The position numbers and the translations under genes are program-made. This document shows positions 1-205 of a stretch of 205 bases of DNA, piece after piece. Under the pieces are notes generated by a model. The model was given only the letters and a program-made list of their open reading frames with translations, ran no database searches and was not told where the DNA came from. Positions within the stretch are counted from its first letter, which is position 1. Each line of letters starts with the position of its first letter. The DNA is from a phage. Where the stretch lies: sequence record J02468.1, one strand, 5' to 3'.

Positions 1-39
1 TTCCCTCAGGAGTGTGGGCCAGCGAGCTCTCCTCGGTAG
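1..39 (+). CDS. rep: 3' end of RNA-dependent RNA polymerase (replicase beta subunit) gene of an MS2-like ssRNA phage; partial, 5' end outside window; frame 1 reads F-P-Q-E-C-G-P-A-S-S-P-R-stop (TAG 37-39)
   Basis: Frame 1 is open from position 1 to TAG at 37-39. This leaves a 166-nt 3' UTR, which is in the range I recall for MS2-group phages. The downstream sequence matches the MS2-type 3' terminus from memory. Frame choice rests on that recollection, not on a homology search. Confidence 0.5.
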   Translation, partial: FPQECGPASSPR

Positions 40-50
40 CTGACCGAGGG
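30..50 (+). other. RNA hairpin: stem 31-36 (CCUCGG) with 44-49 (CCGAGG), optional U30-G50 wobble, 7-nt loop UAGCUGA containing the putative replicase stop codon
   Basis: Six consecutive Watson-Crick pairs read directly from the sequence; the TAG at 37-39 lies in the loop. Confidence 0.55.
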
Positions 51-68
51 ACCGTAAACGGGGTGGGT

Positions 69-84
69 GTGCTCGAAAGAGCAC
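69..84 (+). other. RNA hairpin: 6-bp stem GUGCUC/GAGCAC capped by GAAA (GNRA) tetraloop at 75-78
   Basis: Perfect inverted repeat 69-74 with 79-84 around GAAA; C74-G79 closing pair. Confidence 0.6.
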
Positions 85-86
85 GG

Positions 87-100
87 GTCGCGAAAGCGGT
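87..100 (+). other. RNA hairpin: short stem (C89-G98, G90-C97, C91-G96, plus G-U wobbles 88-99 and 87-100) capped by GAAA tetraloop at 92-95
   Basis: Inverted repeat CGC/GCG around GAAA with flanking wobble pairs, read directly from the sequence. Confidence 0.45.
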
Positions 101-103
101 GGC

Positions 104-119
104 TCCACCGAAAGGTGGG
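104..119 (+). other. RNA hairpin: 5-bp stem CCACC/GGUGG (105-109 with 114-118), plus U104-G119 wobble, capped by GAAA tetraloop at 110-113
   Basis: Perfect inverted repeat around GAAA; C109-G114 closing pair. Confidence 0.55.
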
Positions 120-120
120 C

Positions 121-130
121 GGCTTCGGCC
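121..130 (+). other. RNA hairpin: 3-bp stem GGC/GCC capped by UUCG tetraloop at 124-127 with C123-G128 closing pair
   Basis: GGC-UUCG-GCC read directly; C(UUCG)G is the classic extra-stable tetraloop context. Confidence 0.45.
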
Positions 131-157
131 CAGGGACCTCCCCCTAAAGAGAGGACC

Positions 158-170
158 CGGGATTCTCCCG
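158..170 (+). other. RNA hairpin: stem CGGGA/UCCCG (158-162 with 166-170) with 3-nt loop UUC, or a 4-bp stem with 5-nt loop
   Basis: Inverted repeat read directly from the sequence. An alternative pairing of 133-140 with 151-158 (with one A-A mismatch) overlaps it by one base. Confidence 0.4.
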
Positions 171-174
171 ATTT

Positions 175-200
175 GGTAACTAGCTGCTTGGCTAGTTACC
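175..200 (+). promoter_or_regulatory. 3'-terminal hairpin of the phage genome: perfect 10-bp stem GGUAACUAGC/GCUAGUUACC with 6-nt loop UGCUUG at 185-190
   Basis: Ten consecutive Watson-Crick pairs (175-184 with 191-200). Position immediately upstream of the ACCCA terminus. Matches my recollection of the MS2 3'-terminal stem-loop. Confidence 0.65.
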
Positions 201-205
201 ACCCA
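201..205 (+). promoter_or_regulatory. Single-stranded 3' tail ACCCA ending in CCA; site where replicase initiates minus-strand synthesis in leviviruses
   Basis: The sequence ends in ...ACCACCCA right after the terminal hairpin. Levivirus genomes are known to end in CCCA/CCA, with the terminal A added untemplated. Confidence 0.55.

Follow-up and report, generated by a model that had tools for sequence, protein, structure and literature searches.

The plus-strand 3' terminus of bacteriophage MS2 in record J02468.1 and five bases missing from its hairpins

The stretch of DNA analysed here (205 nt, sequence record J02468.1; referred to below as the window) is the plus-strand 3' terminus of the genome of bacteriophage MS2 (Emesvirus zinderi, Fiersviridae). 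It is an already known sequence and an ordinary MS2 3' end, save for five missing G or C bases that shorten three of its hairpins. Taken as a whole, the reading of the window as the MS2 3' end in which the five missing bases are errors of determination or recording, and not biology, is very probably correct.

Identity, placement and origin of the window

When compared by BLASTN with a set of 50,697 phage records, the window aligns over its whole length to MS2 nt 3360-3569 (100% coverage, E = 1e-93), a match that reaches the extreme 3' end of the 3569-nt genome. Altogether, 145 of these 50,697 records match the window and all of them are MS2-group leviviruses (MS2 / Emesvirus zinderi, fr and FrSaffron-type). 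All 205 aligned bases are the same as in laboratory MS2 (GQ153924), the differences being missing bases only. In an alignment with twelve relatives, the window likewise shows no substitution with respect to GQ153924, GQ153927, isolate DL1 and one IMG/VR contig. The full-length relatives have the mat-cp-lys-rep layout, the MS2 genome measuring about 3.57 kb.

Window position 1 corresponds to MS2 nt 3360, and positions 1-39 translate to FPQECGPASSPR followed by the stop, which is identical to the C-terminus of the annotated MS2 replicase (CDS 1761-3398). Since this segment matches the CDS end at 3398, positions 40-205 are the 3' untranslated region (UTR). The features of the window are as follows.

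1-39, plus strand: final 12 codons of the replicase gene (RdRp beta subunit) with the UAG stop; the translation is that of the MS2 CDS end
31-49, plus strand: stop-codon hairpin CCUCGG-UAGCUGA-CCGAGG, intact, predicted at -10.5 kcal/mol, with the stop codon (37-39) in the loop
40-205, plus strand: 3' untranslated region, 166 nt here versus 171 nt in all deposited MS2 sequences
52-61, plus strand: hairpin A, CCG-UAAA-CGG (wild type CCCCG-UAAA-CGGGG), shortened, three C gone at 52-53
69-84, plus strand: hairpin B, GUGCUC-GAAA-GAGCAC, intact, -8.9 kcal/mol, invariant in MS2 and fr
89-98, plus strand: hairpin C, CGC-GAAA-GCG (wild type CCGC-GAAA-GCGG), shortened, one C gone at 89
102-120, plus strand: hairpin D, GC-U-CCACC-GAAA-GGUGG-GC, intact, -10.5 kcal/mol
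121-130, plus strand: hairpin E, GGC-UUCG-GCC (wild type GGGC-UUCG-GCCC), shortened, one G gone at 121-122
133-158, plus strand: hairpin F, GGG-A-CCUC...GAGG-A-CCC, intact, holding the second CCCCC run at full length
159-169, plus strand: hairpin G, GGGA-UUC-UCCC, intact and invariant
175-200, plus strand: U1, the 3'-terminal hairpin, intact, predicted at -17.3 kcal/mol
201-205, plus strand: single-stranded ACCCA-3' tail, intact, the same as the ends of full-length MS2 records

The last 31 nt of the window (175-205, GGTAACTAGCTGCTTGGCTAGTTACCACCCA) correspond to MS2 3539-3569 and are the same as the last 31 nt of MS2, DL1, DL16 and ST4. In R17 one base differs from the window over this segment and in fr three, two of which make up a compensatory pair. 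The window terminates in ...ACCACCCA. Two recently deposited MS2 sequences, MT830620.1 (at 3569) and LC710217.1 (at its last base), end in ...CCCG or ...G instead of the canonical ...CCCA-3', which probably reflects an artefact of the read end or of an adapter at the non-templated terminal A. The 3' terminus of Emesvirus zinderi as deposited in GQ153924.1 and EF107159.1 (DL1) has the replicase C-terminus with its UAG, the order of the hairpins, U1 and the ACCCA end in common with the window.

These results bear out the first-pass annotation, which was made from the letters of the sequence alone and had proposed an MS2-like levivirus 3' terminus; the 145 MS2-group records, the replicase frame and the conserved hairpins all agree with it. 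The short replicase tail that it described corresponds to the last codons of the annotated MS2 replicase CDS, the 31 terminal nucleotides that it assigned to the MS2-group 3' end are identical at 31 of 31 positions in the four genomes named above, and the CCA end that it noted is found in the ACCCA with which both the window and the full-length MS2 records close. The BLASTN comparison with Fiersviridae genomes that it proposed returned a very strong levivirus match rather than none. A search of the window against Rfam (E <= 10) gave chance-level matches only, mostly on the wrong strand, the best being Gammaretro_CES on the wrong strand with 16.1 bits against a gathering score of 93 (E = 1.8); no curated Rfam family covers the MS2 3' UTR in the window.

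The last 210 nt are the most conserved stretch of the MS2 genome. Among isolates about 8% divergent, with some 270-310 differences from MS2 genome-wide, this stretch shows 0-3 differences (0-2 in those with 280-310 differences overall), compared with 5-32 in a typical 210-nt bin. The environmental isolate DL1 is about 270-310 differences away from MS2 over the genome, and yet it matches the window with no substitution, just as laboratory MS2 (GQ153924) does.

From which source the window stems can be considered in the light of these matches. Another group-I levivirus, such as fr, R17, f2, M12 or a FrSaffron-like phage, would share the common architecture and most of the sequence; but among the 3' ends compared, fr is 30 positions off, R17 2, ST4 3 and FrSaffron 2, whereas GQ153924, GQ153927 and DL1 are at zero, which makes a phage other than MS2 proper a very improbable source. 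Even less credible is an origin from a DNA replicon, whether a plasmid with cloned MS2 cDNA or an insertion into a chromosome. Infectious cDNA clones of MS2 have been made, as have UTR-flanked reporters (PMC6847885), but searches of 72,556 plasmids, 185,579 species-representative genomes and 5,426 complete genomes of E. coli found no match to the window, so that the large DNA replicon considered as a counter-case in the first-pass annotation does not appear in these collections either. Moreover, the window contains no vector sequence and halts precisely where the natural genome does, at ...CCCA-3'. The case is evenly balanced for the proposal that the window derives from laboratory MS2 (internal control, carrier RNA or armored-RNA scaffold) and is a spike-in or contaminant. 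The absence of substitutions with respect to GQ153924 speaks in its favour, as does the routine addition of MS2 to clinical metagenomic assays as an internal control (PMC11558004). In addition, the only IMG/VR contig that contains the window region (L005; IMGVR_UViG_3300011370_000027, 3540 nt) has 11 mismatches to NC_001417 and 15 to LC710217 but 260-280 to wild isolates, and is probably, judged by these mismatches, control or laboratory-strain MS2 in metagenome or metatranscriptome data. Its closeness to laboratory MS2 means that MS2 of the laboratory type does appear in metagenome data. However, DL1 is equally free of substitutions, and the stool isolate MT830620 departs from the window at its last base only. 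Because it shows no substitution against either laboratory MS2 or DL1, the window has no power to separate a control from a wild phage. The 205 nt are the entire source sequence, so that there is no parent contig.

Hairpin architecture and the five missing bases

As RNA, the UTR would fold into a row of short GC-rich hairpins, followed by the long U1 hairpin and the free ACCCA tail. The minimum free energy (MFE) of the window is -97.5 kcal/mol (z = -2.70), versus -106.5 kcal/mol (z = -3.96) for the wild-type region. A consensus fold (alifold) that took in fr, R17, ST4, DL16 and MS2_2 comprises 71 pairs; for five of these, located in the stop-codon hairpin, hairpin F and U1, both partners have changed and the pairing is preserved. 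The structured UTR that had been predicted from the letters alone is confirmed by these energies and two-sided changes.

The compensatory changes that back the stop-codon hairpin, hairpin F and U1 are found in fr (X15031): one pair of the stop-codon hairpin is kept through a double change from G-C to A-U, three pairs of hairpin F are kept through double changes, and U1 shows an A-U to G-C replacement. The 3' terminus of fr has the same architecture as the window, with hairpins A, B, C and G and the three runs affected in the window all conserved, although it differs from MS2 by 30 substitutions and 5 additional nt and is 82.8% identical to the window. Used as a query for more divergent relatives, the fr 3' end found none, and fr stands as a singleton.

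Compared with the 210-nt MS2 span, the 205-nt window has three deletions that remove five bases, all from G or C runs, a difference that the first-pass annotation had overlooked. In hairpin A, CCCCC has become CC (window 52-53), in hairpin C, CC has become C (89), and in hairpin E, GGG has become GG (121-122). GQ153924 minus its positions 52-54, 92 and 125 in the aligned span is exactly the window, and the same CCC, C and G distinguish the window from DL1. The hairpins concerned are all GC-rich and capped by a tetraloop; each deletion falls in the 5' arm and abolishes pairs with no compensation in the 3' arm. Locally, hairpin A weakens from -8.8 to -2.8 kcal/mol, hairpin C from -6.5 to -4.1 kcal/mol and hairpin E from -7.8 to -4.1 kcal/mol; in hairpin E the missing G also costs a pair in an alternative long-range pairing of the alifold consensus (columns 29/127). 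Mutual compensation among the deletions was considered and rejected, as four C are lost against one G and pairs are broken in both the local and the long-range folds.

A query across the three sites matched 117 records, with a best identity of 95.7% (111/116), and every one of them keeps all five bases. The CCCCC run of hairpin A is invariant across all compared records, fr included, and fr retains all three full runs despite its 30 substitutions elsewhere in the region. The window, with C2, C1 and G2 in place of C5, C2 and G3, thus departs from the full-length form of hairpins A, C and E, which is best explained as sequence error and is not a ground for excluding it from MS2.

The strings that span the three deletion junctions (GGGACCGTAAACGGGG, GGGTCGCGAAAGCGG and GGTGGGCGGCTTCGG) do not occur in IMG/VR, a weak negative given that the collections hold few short or partial records. 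Gapped patterns that tolerate either run length matched a single IMG/VR contig, L005, which has the wild-type runs, and gave 0 matches in JGI metagenomes and species-representative genomes; two further anchor scans recovered only L005 again. No paper was returned by a full-text literature search for the deletion junctions or for the string of the terminal hairpin, whether written as DNA or as RNA.

A GTG-initiated open reading frame of 55 aa is present at window positions 12-179 (plus strand) and crosses the UTR; its edge-extended form has 58 aa. Neither form is on record anywhere as a called gene. In the wild-type sequence, the frame departs after the first 1-nt deletion, and the present form depends on the deletions. 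As a gene this frame was rejected, since it is located in the UTR, owes its frame to the deletions and has no called-gene record. It looks like a chance ORF of GC-rich sequence.

Errors of determination or a genuine variant

The five missing bases are likely to be sequencing or record errors, because natural variation does not look like this: three deletions, each shortening a stem and none of them compensated, and not a single substitution. When six MS2-type isolates are pooled, 10 substitutions and 0 indels are counted over the 210 nt, versus 0 and 3 in the window (Fisher p = 0.0035). Over the same 210 nt fr has 30 substitutions and 4 indel events (Fisher p = 0.0045 against the window). Every one of the events shortens a run of G or C (P = 0.017 if placement were random), and every one falls in a 5' arm among the five GC-rich hairpins with tetraloops (P ~ 0.001, a post hoc figure from three events only).

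The bases may have gone missing through compression or undercounting inside very stable GC hairpins. Length-dependent undercalling of homopolymers, as produced by some sequencing platforms, was rejected as the sole cause: the other C5 run, the G4 run and seven of the eight G3 runs are intact in the window, and yet a C2 run has lost one base. Compression associated with hairpins accounts for the pattern better than undercalling of the 454, Ion or nanopore type, although there are only three events. That all of them lie on the plus-sense 5' arm is what would be expected, from general knowledge of gel band compressions, if the minus-sense (cDNA) strand had been read, again for three events.

The 1976 reference sequence of MS2 (NC_001417.2 / V00642, Fiers 1976) covers the same region, belongs to the same length class as the window and is identical to it outside nt ~3451-3466. 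Within this interval (window ~88-102) it reads GGGTGCGAAAGCGGTCCGGC, whereas all modern MS2, R17, DL and fr sequences have GGGTCCGCGAAAGCGGTGGC; the window, like all modern sequences, reads GGGTC(C)GCGAAAGCGGTGGC. From these comparisons, the reference seems to carry a misplaced CC in the GC-rich GAAA hairpin, an old sequencing error. As the window follows the modern version, it is not derived from the 1976 sequence. The misplaced CC sits in hairpin C, the hairpin in which the window is one C short, and an error of the reference itself at this place indicates that the GC-rich stretch is easy to mis-sequence.

Another irregular record of the region is LC710218.1 (MS2 GI_B, wastewater, Japan), a "complete genome" deposited as the reverse complement. 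The window matches it at record positions 47-223 on the minus strand, and an Illumina TruSeq adapter is found at both ends. Its mat, cp, lys and rep coordinates refer to the wrong strand, and the annotated "mat" range translates with stop codons.

Alternatively, the missing bases could be real and the window could represent a natural, laboratory-evolved or engineered MS2 variant with hairpins A, C and E each shortened by 1-3 bp. The three shortened hairpins are still able to form 3-bp stems with unchanged tetraloops, and the deletions leave the CCA tail, the terminal hairpin and the other five hairpins as they are. In general, homopolymer runs are places where RNA replicases and reverse transcriptases can slip. 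Nevertheless, such a variant is improbable. It would have acquired three independent indels without any accompanying substitution, in runs that are invariant in all 117 records, experimental-evolution lines and fr among them, and its 3' arms show no compensation. It is absent from IMG/VR, and the JGI metagenomes and species-representative genomes gave no match with either form of the runs. The region is, moreover, the most constrained of the genome, and three uncompensated stem truncations in this most conserved stretch would be expected to be costly. The reading of the five missing bases as errors is the one retained here.

Function of the MS2 3' end and consequences

In single-stranded RNA phages, replication begins on the plus strand at its 3' UTR; in Q-beta, the active site of the replicase receives the CCA-3' sequence (PMC10610835). 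The MS2 replicase starts minus-strand synthesis from the 3' UTR (PMC6847885), and a spontaneously evolved MS2 replicator kept the last 105 nt of this UTR, whose 3' end is also bound, or competed for, by IF3 (PMC8956599). Furthermore, the MS2 3' UTR binds the maturation protein, a contact that has been described for U1, the last stem-loop, in Q-beta and modelled on MS2 (PMC8880383). According to this literature, the replicase holoenzyme would initiate the minus strand at the CCA-3' end, while a single maturation protein on the 3' UTR, at U1, would anchor the genome in the virion and carry it into the cell. The window is thus, as far as the literature goes, the end of the MS2 genome at which replication is initiated and to which the maturation protein is anchored. 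The five-way junction in the 3' UTR of Q-beta (Qubevirus) is reported to work alike, with U1 contacting the maturation protein and synthesis starting at CCA-3' (PMC8880383, PMC10610835). However, Q-beta belongs to a different genus, has no detectable nucleotide similarity to the window and is absent from the BLASTN matches; membership of the window in that group is not claimed.

For practical purposes, the window can with confidence be assigned to the MS2 3' end and struck from lists of candidate novelties. The last 210 nt of MS2 are useless for strain typing, and the question of control versus wild phage requires sequence upstream of nt ~3360. The GC-rich tetraloop hairpins of the MS2 UTR are recurring sites of error in sequence determination, as seen both in the window and in hairpin C of the 1976 sequence, and indels in these hairpins should not be taken as variation without read-level support. 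If the deletions were genuine after all, the window would stand for an MS2 lineage that is viable, or for a construct minimised on purpose, in spite of the uncompensated shortening of three invariant hairpins within the most conserved 200 nt of the genome. For the replicase and the maturation protein, the positions and the loops of the hairpins would then matter more than the full length of their stems.
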